Assembly (NCBI GenBank): GCA_001780985.1
Contig: MFJV01000001.1
Location: 629,466 to 693,465 of the forward strand
DNA: 64,000 nt
Origin: Candidatus Gottesmanbacteria bacterium RIFCSPLOWO2_01_FULL_43_11b
GTDB taxonomy: Bacteria > Patescibacteriota > Microgenomatia > UBA10105 > UBA927
Reading direction: 5' to 3'
In this document: positions 7,037 through 46,856 of the stretch, in pieces
Position numbering within the stretch: the stretch's first letter is position 1
Layout of the letters: every line of letters starts with the position of its first letter
Program-made: the position numbers and the translations under genes
Notes under the pieces: generated by a model
Told to the model about the DNA's origin: nothing
The model's input: the letters and a program-made list of their open reading frames with translations, nothing else
The model's database searches: none

Positions 7037-7666
7037 ATGCCTGATGATCCGCTTAAGTCCTCGGCAATAGTCTATAACTCAATTGCGTTAACATACGCAC
7101 GACAGATAGAAGAATATGCTCCTGTGCCAGAACGAGATGAATTCATTTCTGTGCTTCCAAGCCAAGGGAAGATTTTAGACGTCGGGTGTGCGGCAGGCAG
7201 AGACAGCGGATATTTTTCCTCAAAAGGATTTTCAGTTGTAGGGGTAGATTTATCAGGAAAACTTCTTGAAATTGCACGAAAAAAATTTCCACATATAGAT
7301 TTTTTTAAACAGGATTTTCGCTCGCATGATTTTCCGAAAGAATCTTTTAACGGAATTTGGGCATGTGCATCACTTTTGCACCTTAAAAGAACAGAAATTC
7401 CGGCGGTTCTCCGTCAATTTTTCGCTCTTCTTAAACCCAAGGGCATTTTATATATCCAAGTAAAAGAAGGAAAAGGAGAAAAAGACGTTGTTGATATATT
7501 ATCATCCGGTCAATCCCGCCACTTTACCTTTTTTGAGATAGGTGAACTAAAACAGTTTTTAGAAGAAGCGGGATTTCGTGTTGAGAAAATCTATGTCTTT
7601 AATGAAAAGGAACGAACGAGAGGACACCGAGACCTGCTTTGGATCAGTAGCTTTTCAAAGAAATAA
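7037..7666 (+). CDS. Class I SAM-dependent methyltransferase
   Basis: Motif I LDVGCAAGRDSGYF; 209 aa. Confidence 0.6.
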   Translation: MPDDPLKSSAIVYNSIALTYARQIEEYAPVPERDEFISVLPSQGKILDVGCAAGRDSGYFSSKGFSVVGVDLSGKLLEIARKKFPHIDFFKQDFRSHDFPKESFNGIWACASLLHLKRTEIPAVLRQFFALLKPKGILYIQVKEGKGEKDVVDILSSGQSRHFTFFEIGELKQFLEEAGFRVEKIYVFNEKERTRGHRDLLWISSFSKK

Positions 7667-7717
7667 TTCTATTTTGCTAATATTAACATGGTAACTCGTT
7701 GATATGAAGCAAGGTCG

Positions 7718-8404: not shown

Positions 8405-9292
8405 ATGGGGCGCAAATTGGCTGTTCTAGCACTTCTCGTTGTCTTCGTGGCGCTTATTTTTGGTGCTATACGTTTTTTTATGAATCGATCCCCACGCCTT
8501 GGTGAACTTCGCGTTGACAGTTCTCCAACGGTAAGTATTTCACTGGATAATAATCATTTAGGGAGAAGTCCATTTCAAGACAAAGTACAGGCGGGTGAAT
8601 ACACTATAAAGCTAACACCTGAGTCTACAATAGACCAACTCGCAAGTTGGCAGGGGAAAATTTCCGTCGGGCAAAACCTCCTAACCTACGTTAATGCAAA
8701 TATTGCAGAATCGGAGTTAACAACAGCAGTGGACCTTCTTTGGCTTGAAAAAATATCAAGCAAAAATACGGAACTTTCTCTTACCACAAATCCTGATGGT
8801 GCGACGGTTCTGGTTGATAACGAGACAAGGGGGGTGTCGCCGCTCACCCTAAGCGACATTACCCCAGGCGACCACACGCTTTCGGTGACAAGTCCGGGTT
8901 TTGCGCCGCGTAATTTAAAAATTAAAACGACAGCAGGGTACAAACTCATCGTGTCGATGAAGCTTGCGTTAAGCTCCAATATCTCACCAACACCGGAGGC
9001 GACCAGTTCTCCGACACCATCGGTTAGTGTAACGCCGACATTAAAAATTACCCCAACAAAAGCCGCCACCTCATCTGCTGATCCTGCAAAACCTTTTGCC
9101 ATTATTAAAGATACGCCAACTGGATTTTTACGTGTTCGCATGGAGCCGTCAACAGCAGCAACTGAGGCGGCGCGGGTTAACCCCGGTGAAAAATATCACA
9201 TCTATGATGAAAAGAGCGGGTGGTACAAAATCCAATACGAAGGAACCAGTAAAGGTTGGATCTCCGGTCAATACGCTGAAAAAGTTGAGTAG
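8405..9292 (+). CDS. PEGA domain / SH3b domain surface protein
   Basis: N-terminal TM; PEGA-like GATVLVDNETRGVSPLTLSDITPGDHTLSVTSPGFAP; S/T/P-rich linker; C-terminal SH3b-like GEKYHIYDEKSGWYKIQYEGTSKGWISGQY. Confidence 0.5.
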   Translation: MGRKLAVLALLVVFVALIFGAIRFFMNRSPRLGELRVDSSPTVSISLDNNHLGRSPFQDKVQAGEYTIKLTPESTIDQLASWQGKISVGQNLLTYVNANIAESELTTAVDLLWLEKISSKNTELSLTTNPDGATVLVDNETRGVSPLTLSDITPGDHTLSVTSPGFAPRNLKIKTTAGYKLIVSMKLALSSNISPTPEATSSPTPSVSVTPTLKITPTKAATSSADPAKPFAIIKDTPTGFLRVRMEPSTAATEAARVNPGEKYHIYDEKSGWYKIQYEGTSKGWISGQYAEKVE

Positions 9293-40666: not shown

Positions 40667-40668
40667 AT

Positions 40669-40836
40669 ATGGTTGCAGCTCAAGAAAAGAAAGTGCATTT
40701 AATTTCCTGTCCATATGGCTGCGGCGCTCAATTTCCAATAGATAAAAAAAGTTTAGATGATCACATTAAAATTTGCCCCAAAGCTCCAAAAACCGGAGAA
40801 ACGCGTTCACCTCAAGTTTCCAAACGAAAGACCTAA
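40669..40836 (+). CDS. Putative small zinc-finger protein (55 aa) immediately downstream of rpsG
   Basis: MVAAQEKKVHLISCPYGCGAQFPIDKKSLDDHIKICPKAPKTGETRSPQVSKRKT: CxxxC...HxxxC spacing. ATG lies 2 nt after the rpsG stop. Below the 60-aa cutoff of the ORF track. Confidence 0.3.
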   Translation: MVAAQEKKVHLISCPYGCGAQFPIDKKSLDDHIKICPKAPKTGETRSPQVSKRKT

Positions 40837-40897
40837 ACGGCATGGGAAATGCGCGGGTTTTCCCAAAACGCTTATATCAGCATGTTACCATGTTAAT

Positions 40898-41974
40898 ATG
40901 AAGTTAAAGCTTTTCTTGATCGTATTTTTTGGAATTTTGGTTGTTCTGGGTTGGCGGTTTTGGTATCAGAATCTTCGCGGCGTGAAACCTGCGGTTGGTC
41001 CTGTGTTGCAAAATTCAACAGGATTACCATTAACAATTCTGGAAGGATATTCAATTTCGGTATTTGCCCAAAATATTCCCAATGCACGGGTGCTTACTTG
41101 GGACCCTACGAGGAGACTCCTCGTAAGTAGCCCTGCAACAGGGAAAGTATTTCGTATTGCAGATGACGGATCTTCATCGGTTGTTATTGAGGGATTAAAT
41201 AAGCCTCACGGGTTAGCATTCAAAGACGGAAAATTATACATTGCGGAAACAGATGCGGTCGCCGTATACGATTACGACGGAAAAGCATCGAACAGAAAAA
41301 AGATTACAGATTTACCTAGCGGGGGTAATCATTTTTCAAGAACTATTGGTTTCGGTCCTGATGGCAAATTAAATATATCCATTGGGTCGTCATGTAATGT
41401 CTGTGTAGAAAAAGATACAAGACGAGCAAGCATTATGGTGTATGATGGTGAACTCAAACCGTTTGCAACAGGCCTTCGAAATTCCGTATTTTTTACATGG
41501 AGAAACGGAGAAATGTGGGCAACCGATATGGGTCGCGATTTAATCGGTGATAATACTCCCCCTGAGGAGGTTAATATTGTTAAAAGCGGAAAAAATTACG
41601 GATGGCCGTATTGTTATGGAAATCGAATTGCCGATACGACATTTGGCGGGACTGATGATTTTTGCAAAACTACGGAGCCACCGATCATAGAATATCAAGC
41701 ACACTCAGCGCCGTTAGGTTTGGCATTTGATAAAGACTATCTTTATGTTTCCTATCACGGTTCATGGAATAGAACCGAGCCTACAGGATATAAAATCGTA
41801 CGCTTTGATTTAAACAACAATTACAAAGCATCAGATTTTATTACCGGTTGGTTGCAGAGTCCGTCAGCTGACGGAGCCCTCGGCCGCCCAGTAGATTTAC
41901 TCTTCGACGACAAAGGAAATTTATTTGTATCCGATGACAAAGCAGGGGTAATTTATAAAGTTACGAGGAATTAA
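40898..41974 (+). CDS. PQQ-dependent sugar (glucose/sorbosone) dehydrogenase-like beta-propeller protein
   Basis: N-terminal TM/signal; KPHGLAFKDGKLYIAETDAV, GGNHFSRTIGFGPDGKLNISIGSSCNVC, GVIYKV. Confidence 0.6.
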   Translation: MKLKLFLIVFFGILVVLGWRFWYQNLRGVKPAVGPVLQNSTGLPLTILEGYSISVFAQNIPNARVLTWDPTRRLLVSSPATGKVFRIADDGSSSVVIEGLNKPHGLAFKDGKLYIAETDAVAVYDYDGKASNRKKITDLPSGGNHFSRTIGFGPDGKLNISIGSSCNVCVEKDTRRASIMVYDGELKPFATGLRNSVFFTWRNGEMWATDMGRDLIGDNTPPEEVNIVKSGKNYGWPYCYGNRIADTTFGGTDDFCKTTEPPIIEYQAHSAPLGLAFDKDYLYVSYHGSWNRTEPTGYKIVRFDLNNNYKASDFITGWLQSPSADGALGRPVDLLFDDKGNLFVSDDKAGVIYKVTRN

Positions 41975-42228
41975 GATTTCACTCTCGGTTTGAACAAGTT
42001 GATAAACGCCTTCCCTGTTATTACACTTTTAGCAATCTCTCGTGTTTCTTTTCTTGCAAATACTGTGCCCATTCCGATAACCTCGTCAAACCCGGCAGCG
42101 GGTAAATTGTTTTGTGTCAGATGTAGGATCGTGCTAACAACAACGCCGATTAGAATACCTTCTTGATAAACCTAAAGGAGGAATCTTTTGCATCTCCAAT
42201 TTATTCACGGAGGTAGTATAATACGAAA

Positions 42229-42267
42229 TTATCCAAATGTAAAGGCGTACAGTTCGACGTTATCGTT
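42229..42267 (-). pseudogene. Duplicated 3'-terminal fragment (last 12 codons plus stop) of the downstream DsbD/TlpA-like gene
   Basis: Minus-strand translation gives NDNVELYAFTFG*, matching the C-terminus DDNVELYAFTFG* of the 42657..44144 gene. About 85 percent nucleotide identity with 42657-42695. Confidence 0.55.
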
Positions 42268-42289
42268 TTAATTTTTGTAATGATCAAAT

Positions 42290-42670
42290 ATGACAATCGA
42301 GAATCTTGAGAAAGCACTGTTGAATAGATTCGTTACAGGTGAGGTTCACTTACGGGAGGGGCCAATTACGTGGAAAGAGATTAACGCATGGGAACCAGAG
42401 AATCGGGCATGGCAAGTAGCAAATATGTTACTGCAGGTGTTTATTCATCCAGAAGATGCGCCAGTCATTCCTGAATCAGTGAACGAAGTATTACAAATGC
42501 TTCAAGAGGGAGGTTGGGATGGAAAAACGCTCCACGATTTTCACAAGGACAGTAGAGATTTAATGCTCTCGCTTAAAGGAAGATTGTCCGAAAAAGATTG
42601 GGGCATCTTTTTTAAAGGAAGCATAAAACGATTTTTAAAACAGTCTGGAAGTGATACTACCCAAACGTAA
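42290..42670 (+). CDS. Hypothetical protein (126 aa), orphan
   Basis: ORF flanked by the direct repeat described above. No motif recognised. Confidence 0.4.
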   Translation: MTIENLEKALLNRFVTGEVHLREGPITWKEINAWEPENRAWQVANMLLQVFIHPEDAPVIPESVNEVLQMLQEGGWDGKTLHDFHKDSRDLMLSLKGRLSEKDWGIFFKGSIKRFLKQSGSDTTQT

Positions 42671-44144
42671 ATGCGTACAGTTCCACGTTGTCATCGGGGA
42701 ATTCCAGTTTTAAAATATGGTCGCCGGGTTGGGGGAGATTGATGAGTTCATATAGTCTATCGGAATCTACAGATACCTCTTTAACAAACTCATCATCGAG
42801 ATAAATATTTACTTTTCCGTTCCCCCGCATAACTAAAAATACCTTCGCTGCATTAAAACGAAATGTAAGCGTTGCTCCCACTCCTGGCATGGCAAATTCC
42901 GGTGATTTTGTCCAAGTGCCTGAGGTAGAAATTCGTGAGTAGTCTCCACGAGCCGCGCCCAGATATGTTTCCGGCGTACGGGATTGGATTTCATATGTGG
43001 GATTATCAATCGGCATATCTAAGAGAAGCAATTCCTGAATTTTTTTCTCTGTTTGATCATATTCACCTTCACCAAAATGTGTGTAGCGAATATTCCCCTC
43101 TTTATCAATCAAATATTTTGCTGGCCAGTAGCGGTTGCTGAATGCTGTCCAGGTAGCATAGTCGTTATCCTGCATCACAAGGTACTCTAACCCAAAATCT
43201 TTTATGGCTTTTGCAACGTTATTTGGATTCTTTTCAAATTCAAATTCCGGTGTGTGAACGCCGATAATTACCAATCCCTTGTCCTTATACTTCGTATGCC
43301 AATTTTTGAGGTATGGAAGTGTTCGAATACAATTTATGCACGTATATGTCCAAAAGTCTAGTAATACCACCTTTCCTCGCAAACTCGCGATCGTCGTTGG
43401 ATTTCCATTAAACCATTGTCCGCCGACAACAGGCTCCGGTGCTTTACCGAGATTGGGAGGATCCTTCATTTTAACTAACTGCTTTCTAACCAAATCATTG
43501 TCTTCAAGCTTTGTTAACCCAACACCGTAGTTAGGGAATTTCGTCAGTATATACGTCTGAAACTGTCGATCCCAACTAAAGTAAATTGCTACGGCTGTTA
43601 AAATCATCAAAACCCCAAATATTTTTTGGATGTTTGGAGAAGTTTTTATAAACTTTCGTCCGCCGTAAAGAATTATCAGCATCGGAAGACTAGTTCCGGC
43701 GGAGTACGAAAGTGTGATCAAAACTGCATCAAGCCCCACAGTTGATGTTGCAGCAAGCGCGATGATTGCTGCTAGGATTGGACCGACGCACGGAGTCCAG
43801 ACAAGTCCAAGACTCATGCCGAGCAGAAATCCATTTGTCGTTTTTGGCATGAATGAAATTTTAAAAATTTCTTTCCCCAAAACCATACTTATGCCAAAAA
43901 ATGTAATAACAAAAACTGCAACCAGTCGGAGAGCGTCGGAAGAAATCCCTGTTAATCTGACAATTGCATTCAAGAATAGAGTAAAGAATGTAAAGCTTAC
44001 AATAAATCCAAGAATGATACCCAGAGGTCTCTGTTTTCCTCCGGCAATTCCTCCCGACAGAACGATTGGCAATATCGGCAAAATACAAGGGGAGAGAATC
44101 GTAACGATTCCGCCTAAGAATGCAAAAAGAATAAGGAGTGACAT
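42657..44144 (-). CDS. Thiol:disulfide interchange fusion protein: CcdA/DsbD-type membrane domain plus periplasmic thioredoxin (TlpA/ResA-like) plus C-terminal domain
   Basis: CILPILP motif in TM1; second Cys in LVWTPCVGPILAAI; redoxin VVLLDFWTYTCINCIRTLPYL (CxxC). Confidence 0.65.
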   Translation of the reverse strand: MSLLILFAFLGGIVTILSPCILPILPIVLSGGIAGGKQRPLGIILGFIVSFTFFTLFLNAIVRLTGISSDALRLVAVFVITFFGISMVLGKEIFKISFMPKTTNGFLLGMSLGLVWTPCVGPILAAIIALAATSTVGLDAVLITLSYSAGTSLPMLIILYGGRKFIKTSPNIQKIFGVLMILTAVAIYFSWDRQFQTYILTKFPNYGVGLTKLEDNDLVRKQLVKMKDPPNLGKAPEPVVGGQWFNGNPTTIASLRGKVVLLDFWTYTCINCIRTLPYLKNWHTKYKDKGLVIIGVHTPEFEFEKNPNNVAKAIKDFGLEYLVMQDNDYATWTAFSNRYWPAKYLIDKEGNIRYTHFGEGEYDQTEKKIQELLLLDMPIDNPTYEIQSRTPETYLGAARGDYSRISTSGTWTKSPEFAMPGVGATLTFRFNAAKVFLVMRGNGKVNIYLDDEFVKEVSVDSDRLYELINLPQPGDHILKLEFPDDNVELYAFTFG

Positions 44145-44176
44145 GTAGATGTAGTATAGCTTACAATAGGAAAATC

Positions 44177-45145
44177 ATGAATTTCAATTGGATTGACTGG
44201 ACTATTGTTGCAGTTGTCTTCTACTATTTGATTTCCGGTTGGCAAACCGGACTTATTTATTTATCCCTCAACCTCTTTTCATTCTTAGGATCGCTCTGGT
44301 TTGCAGTAAAATTTCATGCACCGGTTGGAGGATTCCTTACAGAAAAGTTTGGAATTCCCGAAATATGGACAACAGTCTTAGGGTACGTCGTTGTTGCAAT
44401 TATTGCCGAGGCGTTACTTTCTGAAATCGGCAATTGGTTCATTGTAAAAATTCCTAAAAAATATTTTACATCCAAGGCGAATCAGTGGTTAGGAGCACTC
44501 CTTGCAACGCTTAACGGTATTGTCATTGTCACGTTTATCCTTTTAGTTATTCTTGCTTTACCACTTCGCGGAAGTATTAAGAAAGATATTAGCACGTCAA
44601 TTATTGGGAAGACTTTGGTTAAATACGCAGAAAGCTATGGGGGAGGAGTTAAGTCGCTTCTTGAAGAAGTTTCTGCAGAAGCCCGGAAGTTTTTAACCAT
44701 CCAGCCGAGATCTACAGAGCGTATTGAACTTGATGTTGCGCCCGAAAAATCAGAGCTTACCATTGACGAAATATCAGAGAACAGAATGGTTGAGTTAGTC
44801 AACAGTGAGCGGGCAAAAGTAGGAGCTCCCGCTCTCATAATTGATATGAAAATTACTGCCGTTGCACGCGCACATAGTCGTGATATGTTTGAGAGGGCGT
44901 ATTTTTCCCACATAAGCCCTGAAGGAACTGACGTTGGAGATAGACTTTCTGCAGGCGGTGTTTCGTTTACCTATGCAGGAGAAAATTTAGCATATGCTCC
45001 GGATCTTCCTACAGCGCATCAAGGACTCATGGATAGCGAAGAGCATCGTCGAAACATTCTTGATCCGGAATTTAGACGTATCGGCATCGGTGTTATTGAC
45101 GGAGGTATCTATGGCAAAATATTCACCCAAAACTTTACAAACTAA
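44177..45145 (+). CDS. CvpA-family membrane domain fused to CAP/SCP (PR-1-like, YkwD-type) extracellular domain
   Basis: N-terminal 4-TM CvpA-like region; C-terminal MVELVNSERAKVGAPAL...AHSRDMFERAYFSHISPEG...GENLAYA...MDSEEHRRNILDPEFRRIGIGV. ORF opens at 44138; start taken at MNFNWIDW. Confidence 0.55.
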   Translation: MNFNWIDWTIVAVVFYYLISGWQTGLIYLSLNLFSFLGSLWFAVKFHAPVGGFLTEKFGIPEIWTTVLGYVVVAIIAEALLSEIGNWFIVKIPKKYFTSKANQWLGALLATLNGIVIVTFILLVILALPLRGSIKKDISTSIIGKTLVKYAESYGGGVKSLLEEVSAEARKFLTIQPRSTERIELDVAPEKSELTIDEISENRMVELVNSERAKVGAPALIIDMKITAVARAHSRDMFERAYFSHISPEGTDVGDRLSAGGVSFTYAGENLAYAPDLPTAHQGLMDSEEHRRNILDPEFRRIGIGVIDGGIYGKIFTQNFTN

Positions 45146-45422
45146 CATATATCGTATTGTTTCCCGGATTCCAAAAGGCAAAGTGCTGACGTATGGTTTG
45201 GTGGCAAAACTTGTGGGCATTAAAAATCCCCGCCTCGTCGGCAGCGTCTTGCACAAAAATATTAATCCGAAAAAAATTCCTTGCCACCGGGTCGTCAACG
45301 CCCGGGGCAAAGTCGCCTCCTCCTACGCCTTCGGTGGTGCCGCGGGACAGCGGAAAAAACTTCTCTCAGAAGGTATCCAGTTTACCAATGGGAAGGTTGA
45401 TTTGAAGCGCTTCACTGGCTGA
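45111..45422 (+). CDS. ogt: Methylated-DNA-protein-cysteine methyltransferase (Ogt/MGMT C-terminal DNA-binding domain protein)
   Basis: IPCHRVVNARG active-site motif; about 103 aa; start at MAKYSP, overlapping the upstream gene end. Confidence 0.6.
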   Translation: MAKYSPKTLQTNIYRIVSRIPKGKVLTYGLVAKLVGIKNPRLVGSVLHKNINPKKIPCHRVVNARGKVASSYAFGGAAGQRKKLLSEGIQFTNGKVDLKRFTG

Positions 45423-45485
45423 CAATTAGTCTCTAAGTTTTCTCCTTTAACTATCCTCGCAAAATAAGAGATTTGGGATGATACA

Positions 45486-45938
45486 ATGGGCATAATGATT
45501 CTTCCAAAAAAAGCTTCGTGGGCACTACTCACCCTCTACTTCATTTTTGACAATGTCGCTTCGTATTGGGCGATAACGCGAATGGGTGGGAGAGAATTAA
45601 ATTTGGTAATCGCGCCGCTGGTGGAAACCTATCCATTTCTGTATTTCCTTTGTATTCCAGCCCAAATAATCGCCATATATCTTATCGCTTTATTTTTACG
45701 GGAGGTAGTGGTCGCGATGACGCGGCATTGGAAATTTTTTGACAAAACCATCATTGAACGGATTATCCTTGCTTCCATTGCCATCTACTGGCCGATAGCG
45801 AACTCATCTCTCAACGTCATGTTCATCTTTGGCTTCCGCGGCCAGGGGTATTTGTGGGGAACATCGACGTCCATTGGTATAACGGTGGCTCTAGGCTACG
45901 GTCTCCTATCTCTTTACCTCTTTAGCAGAAAAAAATAG
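45486..45938 (+). CDS. Hypothetical integral membrane protein (4 TM)
   Basis: 150 aa, hydrophobic segments, no motif. Confidence 0.4.
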   Translation: MGIMILPKKASWALLTLYFIFDNVASYWAITRMGGRELNLVIAPLVETYPFLYFLCIPAQIIAIYLIALFLREVVVAMTRHWKFFDKTIIERIILASIAIYWPIANSSLNVMFIFGFRGQGYLWGTSTSIGITVALGYGLLSLYLFSRKK

Positions 45939-46103
45939 CTCGGTAGCGCAAGACGAGAAACTCTAGCGATCGTTTTCTTCCTCTTGATCGATAATCAGTT
46001 CTTTGGAATTATGTACTTTTTTGGAAAATATGATATAACTCATTAAGTATGCATAAAGTTCACAGAAACAACTACATAGTCGTAGAAAACCAGCTGGAAG
46101 TGC

Positions 46104-46131
46104 TTGACAAGAAAATATTTTCTATTATAAT
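46104..46131 (+). promoter_or_regulatory. Sigma70-like promoter giving a leaderless or near-leaderless transcript for the 46138 gene
   Basis: TTGACA (46104-09), 16-nt spacer, TATAAT (46126-31); ATG at 46138. Confidence 0.4.
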
Positions 46132-46137
46132 GGAAAT

Positions 46138-46596
46138 ATGAGCACAGATTGGATAAAGTTTGAAGATGCAGGAAAACGCATGGTGGATCGAATAACGATC
46201 ACTAAAGGCGGTACTATCGGATTCCCGACACTATTCTACAAGAGGAATGGCGTAAACGGGTTTAAATACGTGATTTTATATTATTCTCCTACAGAAAAAG
46301 CTATAGGTTTAGAGCTTTCTAACGATGAAAACGAAAAAGGAAAATTAAGAATATCGCATAGTGCCCAGGGTTACGGTGCAAGCGTGAATGCACGCTTGTT
46401 TTTTCGTATAAACGAAATAGACTACATTTCTTACAGCCACAAATACAAGTGGACAAAAGAATCTTTTAGCGGTAAGGATCTTTTTGTTATTAAACTTTCA
46501 GAGAAAGACACAGAAGTTAAAACGGGTGATGTTGTTGATCCTGGGAACGATGAGGTTAAAAAAGAGCCTGACGTTTCCCCGGGTTCTGGTGAATAA
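46138..46596 (+). CDS. Hypothetical protein (152 aa)
   Basis: Own promoter; no recognisable domain; acidic C-terminal tail. Confidence 0.4.
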   Translation: MSTDWIKFEDAGKRMVDRITITKGGTIGFPTLFYKRNGVNGFKYVILYYSPTEKAIGLELSNDENEKGKLRISHSAQGYGASVNARLFFRINEIDYISYSHKYKWTKESFSGKDLFVIKLSEKDTEVKTGDVVDPGNDEVKKEPDVSPGSGE

Positions 46597-46856
46597 ACCA
46601 CGCGTCTATTCCATTAGGGCGATTCAACGTGGTGAACGAGGTCCGATCCCTCGCGGGGAGCCATCAGGCTCTTTTTCTACTATTTCTACTATATCAAATT
46701 ATATCAAATTTCTCCACAAACTTCACCTATTACTATACCAATTTACTTAATTATAGTTAAATCACGCTAGACAGCAAGAAGATTTTTTAGTACAATAATA
46801 ATGTTAAAACACAGCTGCGCGCATGTGGGCGTAGCTTATTTTTGTTTTTACTTACT

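Follow-up and report, generated by a model that had tools for sequence, protein, structure and literature searches.

A relic DipZ gene end in a Gottesmanbacteria genome, a probable scar of recombination between two versions of one locus

Related systems and the layout of the locus

Integrative elements can target the 3' ends of genes and carry a replacement end with them, the two copies of the terminus then lying in direct repeat as attL and attR. The locus described here is similar in that a repeated terminus brackets what looks like inserted DNA, the gene affected is intact, and the differences between the two termini are mostly silent. It is different in that no integrase is encoded in the surrounding block, the bracketed DNA is a single gene of 381 nt that is found elsewhere as a neighbor of the same gene without repeats, and the distal copy of the terminus is continuous with a pseudogene of an alternative arrangement of the locus.

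Homology-facilitated illegitimate recombination (HFIR) is a route by which linear DNA is integrated, one of its ends being recombined by homology and the other joined illegitimately; it is known from Acinetobacter baylyi, Streptococcus pneumoniae, Pseudomonas stutzeri, and conjugation in E. coli (PMC3240628). The present locus shares with the scars of HFIR the variant DNA beside a homologous gene, with a non-homologous join at the end of that DNA, and a truncated remnant, from the gene that was replaced or that came in, next to an intact copy. It differs in that no anchor or mosaic boundary is visible, and the partners here would be two versions of one locus, not unrelated DNA. Among CPR bacteria, natural competence has been demonstrated in Saccharibacteria, not in Gottesmanbacteria (PMC10633639).

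The gene with the repeated end is comparable to Rv2874, the DipZ of Mycobacterium tuberculosis, in having the same three parts, namely a CcdA/DsbD-type membrane domain, a thioredoxin-like domain, and a C-terminal Thioredoxin_10 domain. Compared with Rv2874, it is a short form of 495 aa, which is common to the two closest relatives of the genome under study (L101 and L102). The window referred to below is the whole stretch of 64,000 nucleotides that was analyzed; its source is a CPR/Patescibacteria genome from groundwater. The features concerned are as follows.

40757-41974, plus strand: GSDH-like gene (glucose/sorbosone dehydrogenase fold, beta-propeller), the conserved convergent partner of DipZ
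41971-42208, minus strand: orf78-like pseudogene, from tblastn and DNA alignment against orf78 of the related locus L106
42215-42243, minus strand: promoter-like site of the orf78-like gene, by consensus matches only (-35 TTTACA, 17-nt spacer, -10 TATACT)
42225-42267, minus strand: distal repeat copy, the relic 3' end of a second DipZ (NDNVELYAFTFG and stop, with an in-frame TAA before it)
42268-42289, no strand: junction, a presumed illegitimate join, where similarity to DipZ stops, 22 nt before the ATG of ORF126
42290-42670, plus strand: ORF126, of an uncharacterized family of small helical proteins with GWDG and W..YF motifs
42653-42695, minus strand: proximal repeat copy, the working 3' end of DipZ (the last 12 codons, DDNVELYAFTFG, the stop, and 4 nt beyond)
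42657-44144, minus strand: DipZ-type thiol:disulfide oxidoreductase, short 495-aa form, with CcdA/DsbD membrane domain, redoxin, and Thioredoxin_10

The membrane domain of DipZ matches Pfam DsbD_TM (E 1.7e-8) and, over residues 1-204, the CcdA structure in PDB 5vkv (E 5.6e-14); in the alignment, neither C20 nor C119 varies. The redoxin domain (E 1.3e-13) carries an invariant CxxC at C269-x-x-C272, and Thioredoxin_10 (E 1.3e-19) occupies residues 387-495. The closest solved relative is the M. tuberculosis DipZ (PDB 2hyx and 5cyy, E 7e-50 over the redoxin part). The gene at 42657-44144 thus has the DipZ architecture, with a CcdA/DsbD transmembrane domain, a CxxC thioredoxin fold, and Thioredoxin_10. 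Its terminus, [YF][AST]FTFG before the stop, is kept in almost every one of some 100 homologous loci, which represent many phyla. A thioredoxin gene lies upstream of DipZ in six relatives and is missing in the window. The true start of the GSDH gene is probably near 40898.

Related loci were collected from species-representative genomes, JGI metagenomes, and contigs encoding the closest DipZ proteins. All recovered Gottesmanbacteria loci that span the region have the order rpsL-rpsG, variable genes, GSDH and DipZ in convergent orientation, variable genes, and fusA-tuf. Therefore, while the block at 40.7-46.8 kb does interrupt the rpsL-rpsG-fusA-tuf series, as a preliminary description of this DNA had noted, the interruption of the str operon is not local but a lineage-wide variable island, in which GSDH and DipZ are present in every spanning locus. 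Of the relatives, L101 is consistently the nearest to the window, with protein identities of 81% for rpoC, 74% for GSDH, 78% for DipZ, 70% for CvpA-CAP, and 90% for fusA.

The junction between GSDH and DipZ holds at least five different contents across the relatives. The two genes overlap tail to tail by 14 nt in L101 and L102, and likewise in L008, which is more distant, and these loci have a single terminus copy and neither of the two small genes of the window; these are the empty sites whose existence the preliminary description had anticipated. Other loci have small ORFs at the junction that are mutually unrelated: orf100 in L103, orf78 in L106, and orf120 in L010, a frameshifted copy of the last being present in L014. 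Two arrangements are of particular concern below. Type A, found in L106, has GSDH followed by orf78 and DipZ, both of the latter on the opposite strand. Type B, found in L110 and L113, has a gene of the ORF126 family convergent with DipZ.

Two DipZ termini and a relic block

The duplication of the DipZ terminus around 42290-42670 that had been reported is real. The direct repeat comprises 42225-42264 and 42653-42692, at an offset of 428 nt, and 33 of its 40 bases (83%) are equal. The coding parts, NDNVELYAFTFG with its stop at 42229-42267 and DDNVELYAFTFG with its stop at 42657-42695, are both on the minus strand and encode (N/D)DNVELYAFTFG and a stop; here the identity is 31/39 (79%), slightly less than the 85 percent or so given previously. 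When the 40-mer was compared with the whole 64 kb on both strands, the runner-up match was below 24/40, and none of 3000 random 40-mers had as many as 33/40 matching bases with any other segment within 1 kb. The repeat is therefore not due to chance. An extended tandem duplication with a period of 428 nt was considered, and is absent.

Both copies are kept in six other assemblies (L001-L006), made from different samples with different assemblers, with 0-2 mismatches in the region. The repeat is thereby confirmed to be real and not an artefact of assembly. A related possibility is that the window is a chimera created in assembly from a type A and a type B strain that co-existed, as might be suspected of a sequence that comes from metagenome-assembled genomes and combines arrangements found separately elsewhere. 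Against this, the sequence across the join is the same to the base in seven assemblies, which differ in their samples and assembly programs. No shared repeat coincides with the join at 42268-42289, and with 8 differences in 39 positions the two copies would not be collapsed in an assembly graph. Moreover, among the contigs with an identical GSDH there is neither an alternative arrangement nor a strain variant without ORF126. An assembly chimera is thus extremely improbable.

The distal copy does not stand alone. On the minus strand, the block 41971-42267 is composed of the DipZ tail, the promoter-like site, and a frameshifted gene similar to orf78 of L106, where this small gene comes next after DipZ. 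The homology to orf78 extends from 42165 to 41974; in tblastn, the L106 protein matches the window with 32% identity over 63-64 aa, E being 3e-11 when the search is local and 6e-7 with a wider sequence set. At the DNA level, the stretch 42275-41965 aligns in colinear fashion to the DipZ end and orf78 of L106. The GTG start of the window gene at 42208 is aligned to the ATG of L106 orf78; compared with the latter, the window gene has a gap of 14 nt, by which the frame is shifted. Its stop and that of GSDH overlap by 4 nt in both loci. The promoter-like layout is also the same: the -35 TTTACA lies within the Phe-Thr codons of the relic, and in L106 a TTTACA in the Phe-Thr codons is followed after 16 nt by TATAAT. 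From this colinearity it follows that the distal copy is the tail of a DipZ-orf78 arrangement (type A) in which orf78 is now a pseudogene. Beside the proximal copy, there is no counterpart of the orf78 relic.

Two minor points concern the same block. The small frame orf58 (41990-42166, plus strand) is simply antisense to the orf78-like pseudogene. A decayed 3' end of GSDH at about 42142-42245 seemed plausible on visual inspection and when aligned, with gaps, to L101, and was rejected: a protein profile of GSDH C-termini scores below zero there, and DNA Smith-Waterman scores against eight GSDH ends fall inside the shuffle distribution.

The differences between the two termini are informative as to their history. 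The 39 coding bases differ at 8 positions; 7 of these are silent third-codon changes, and a single codon alters the amino acid. If the copies had been identical at the time of an insertion, as expected of a target-site duplication, the differences would be spread over the codon positions, and this expectation fails. In a simulation of in-situ duplication followed by neutral decay, in which the working copy takes silent changes only and the relic takes all, at most one changed codon was obtained with P = 0.0009, and at least seven third-position differences with P = 0.005. In addition, the 31/39 identity of the relic and the working terminus is comparable to that between the termini of other species and either copy (28-33/39). 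Divergence at the between-species level, together with the silent pattern, indicates that both copies ended working DipZ genes for most of their divergence. The two termini must therefore, as far as sequence can tell, be either orthologs from different lineages or long-standing paralogs. It may be borne in mind that the argument from the termini concerns 39 nt in all.

The repeat is not a target-site duplication, nor is it the footprint of an insertion that the preliminary description had supposed. The corresponding explanation, that ORF126 was inserted with duplication in situ, by a long target-site or microhomology duplication, and that the non-functional copy then drifted, agrees with the geometry, which resembles a flanking direct repeat around a single ORF. 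It is nevertheless highly improbable in view of the 7/8 silent differences with one changed codon (simulated P of about 0.001), the divergence equal to that between species, the continuation of the distal copy into an orf78 relic that has no equal at the proximal copy, and the lack of an extended tandem duplication. The comparison of silent and replacement difference counts used here is a simple test that separates once-functional relics from insertion footprints.

ORF126 and its relatives

ORF126 (381 nt, 126 aa) overlaps the 3' end of DipZ by 14 nt. A word-indexed search with its sequence returned only ORF126 itself, and it had been regarded as an orphan. An exhaustive HMMER search of 1.84 billion representatives, however, found 11 relatives of 110-125 aa, with E values of 2e-16 to 6e-4 and 31-44% identity over residues 1-110. 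Five residues are invariant in the family (G75, W76, G78, W104, and F108), and these form the motifs GWDG and W..YF. Beyond its relatives, ORF126 has a C-terminal extension of about 16 aa, which is the part that enters the DipZ end.

The family has no match in Pfam, NCBIfam, PHROG, or PDB. An AlphaFold (AF2) model of ORF126 from five sequences is all-helical (pLDDT 77), while the model from the single sequence is poor (pLDDT 47); a Foldseek search of the ORF126 model against PDB gave nothing at E below 1. No homology to ORF126 was found for the small ORFs that L010, L103, and L106 have in its place.

The genomic contexts of the relatives bear on the origin of the repeat. The closest relative, P0122, is in another Gottesmanbacterium (L110), between rpsG and fusA, where GSDH and P0122 run in one direction and DipZ against them; the spacer between P0122 and DipZ is 117 nt, with no second DipZ terminus and no relic. 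In L113, P0123 is convergent with the DipZ end at a distance of 22 nt, again with no repeat, and the upstream gene there is not GSDH. A third relative, P0127 (L109), lies elsewhere in its genome. The tail-to-tail pairing with DipZ in L110 and L113 without a repeat comes close to what the preliminary description itself had named as speaking against its insertion reading.

ORF126 might also have been an antisense artefact of a decayed C-terminal duplicate of DipZ. This candidate was rejected, because the minus-strand frames of 42268-42656 have no similarity to DipZ and ORF126 has real homologs. From these homologs and from the tail-to-tail contexts without a repeat, it is concluded that ORF126 is a real gene of a small uncharacterized family and a recurrent convergent neighbor of DipZ, not a freshly inserted cassette. 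The repeated tail-to-tail association may suggest a functional link between the family and DipZ.

Origin of the arrangement

It is directly observed that the window is colinear with both types, that orf78 is a pseudogene, and that two termini coding for the same peptide have diverged. Since the relic block matches type A, and ORF126 with the working DipZ matches type B, the window is probably a chimera of the two types, joined about 22 nt upstream of ORF126, and the relic a scar of that recombination. Because the relic is continuous with the orf78-like gene, the repeat would flank the junction of two locus versions, not a cassette. The sharp loss of similarity at 42268 is as expected for a join without homology. 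The earlier proposal of a recombination footprint thus holds to the extent that a past non-homologous join is indicated and illegitimate recombination fits, while its cassette insertion and site-specific event are not supported.

Under this explanation, type A would have been kept from GSDH up to codon -12/-13 of its DipZ, and joined at 42268-42289 to type B. We infer one illegitimate join of two diverged locus versions, which would reproduce the whole structure. The simplest route may be HFIR following uptake of DNA from a related Gottesmanbacterium, with the homology anchor in DipZ or GSDH at one end and the non-homologous join at the other. No donor lineage was identified; between the window orf78 and the L106 protein, the identity is just 32%. 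GSDH and DipZ are both closest to L101 along their whole length, 3' ends included, and no mosaic boundary is visible in either gene against available relatives that are at most 78% identical; the homologous anchor that HFIR requires is consequently not visible. As the closest relatives have neither type A nor type B, this explanation needs at least two gains in the lineage of the window, or losses elsewhere.

In an alternative route that would fit the data equally well, a second DipZ module arrived first and the redundant copy was deleted later. A similar history is at the base of an explanation by paralog loss, in which two complete DipZ modules stood side by side in the ancestor, orf78 and DipZ_A being followed by ORF126 convergent with DipZ_B, and DipZ_A was deleted except for its last 12 codons. 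Paralog loss would account for the silent-site divergence, both copies having long been functional, for the decay of orf78 by the loss of its upstream gene, and for the absence of mosaicism in the surviving genes. On the other hand, apart from the two cases with relics, two DipZ genes or termini occur in none of the screened loci, within the flanks fetched, and the tandem state would still need an earlier insertion, which makes this largely a two-step version of the chimera. We consider it unlikely on the whole.

If the window is a chimera of types A and B, the relic would be an ordinary recombination scar, mostly of modest value, and a clean example of one at a gene end in an uncultivated CPR bacterium. 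The locus may further be taken as evidence at the sequence level that Gottesmanbacteria exchange or reshuffle DNA at the variable island between rpsG and fusA.

The second relic case is in another Gottesmanbacterium (L016/L111/L112), in which an unrelated ORF of 273 aa lies between the DipZ end (7660-7689) and a second terminus copy (8538-8567). The second copy in L016 covers the last 9-10 codons, is 27/30 identical, and has its stop mutated to CAA. Both available contigs of this type end about 150 nt beyond the distal copy. A convergent gene over the L016 distal copy was considered as the cause of its conservation and found unconvincing, there being only an open stretch of 29 codons.

That the duplicated stretch is almost equal in the two cases, with 10-12 final codons, the stop, and 3-4 nt more, hints at a preferred breakpoint or an att-like site. 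It may accordingly be asked whether the DipZ terminus (..GARCTNTAYGCNTTYACNTTYGGNTAA) is an att site at which cassettes with replacement gene ends are exchanged by a recombinase acting in trans. Such site-specific exchange is favored by the independence of the second case and by the at least five contents of the GSDH/DipZ junction, and a replacement end borne by an element would likewise differ mainly at silent sites. It appears quite unlikely all the same. The genes in the 40.7-46.8 kb block are GSDH, ORF126, DipZ, CvpA-CAP, an MGMT-like DNA-binding protein, and two without a family match, with no recombinase among them, and no att-like structure was seen at the window locus. A second copy is present in only 2 of about 100 distinct DipZ loci, whereas L103, L106, L010, L110, and L113 hold other small genes without one, and the relatives of ORF126 pair with DipZ without any repeat. 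Furthermore, the relic runs into the orf78 pseudogene as in L106, which fits a gene fragment and not an att site.

In a broader form, to which we assign only a slight probability, the last 30-40 nt of DipZ, which are highly conserved, would be a recurrent recombination hot spot in Gottesmanbacteria, at which small genes are swapped and the gene end is regenerated. Either a recombinase acting in trans or the capture of circular DNA by short homology might be the mechanism, and, if this were true, the window and L016 would represent a cassette system without an integron, caught in the act.

The variable island between rpsG and fusA

Across the Gottesmanbacteria, rpsG and fusA are separated by an island of variable content (window 40667-46856, with equivalents in the related loci L101, L102, L103, L106, L110 and L111). 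Besides the glucose/sorbosone dehydrogenase-like gene (GSDH) and the thiol:disulfide oxidoreductase gene (DipZ), it holds, differing by genome, an HhH-GPD glycosylase, LigT, a pterin-4a dehydratase, a cupredoxin, a flavodoxin, a Bro-N protein and a copper ATPase/CsoR block. Searches of Pfam, NCBIfam and PHROGs gave no match for two further island genes of the window, and none of the related loci retrieved contains a homolog of either:

45486-45938, island gene, 150 aa
46138-46596, island gene, 152 aa

DipZ and GSDH in the window and in relatives

The window DipZ (42657-44144; 495 aa) is of a short form shared with L101 and L102, and in alignment A1 it has, compared with the proteins of 520-570 aa of the other relatives, approximately 70 residues fewer, in four stretches, with all the conserved cysteines retained. 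In the locus comparison, six relatives have a thioredoxin gene directly 5' of DipZ and in the same orientation, at positions that include the following:

L101 7586-7996, same strand as DipZ
L102 182-625, same strand as DipZ
L106 7542-7994, same strand as DipZ
L110 10100-10570, same strand as DipZ

In the window, the thioredoxin gene is absent upstream of DipZ, and no thioredoxin homolog was found elsewhere in the 64 kb; only 32 nt separate the start of DipZ from that of the divergent CvpA-CAP gene (44144-44177). At the other end of the pair, approximately 45 N-terminal residues of the 405-aa GSDH frame (40757-40897) have no counterpart in the relatives; translation of GSDH probably begins at the Met near 40898 (MKLKLFLIVFF...).

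The junction of GSDH and DipZ

In three relatives the convergent genes GSDH and DipZ share 14 nt at their 3' ends, and the GSDH stop lies on the strand opposite the Phe-Thr codons conserved in the DipZ end (..AFTFG*):

L101 9475-9488, tail-to-tail overlap
L102 2106-2119, tail-to-tail overlap
L008 about 7678-7692, tail-to-tail overlap

In the window the same antisense stop, opposite the Phe-Thr codons, serves ORF126, the 126-aa gene between GSDH and DipZ. A 120-aa ORF occupies the junction in L010 (7716-8078), and its frameshifted copy in L014 (7707-8099) is another small gene in decay at this site.

The Phe-Thr codons of DipZ also contain the -35 element (TTTACA) of a promoter-like site that would serve the gene 3' of DipZ; this site matches at 10 of 12 positions in the window relic (the second DipZ 3' end) and at 11 of 12 in L106:

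window 42215-42243, minus strand, -35 within the DipZ Phe-Thr codons
L106 9549-9576, -35 at the same position

Such an element inside the DipZ tail could be the reason that the tail travels with orf78, the small gene 3' of DipZ in L106.

A second, independent duplicated DipZ terminus, besides that in the window, is present in L016 (the same as L111 and L112):

L016 7660-7689 and 8538-8567 (L111 9660-10567; also L112), DipZ terminus copies

The two copies bracket an unrelated 273-aa ORF with a weak YtkA-like match, and the stop of the distal copy is changed to CAA. Both contigs available for this case end approximately 150 nt past the distal copy.
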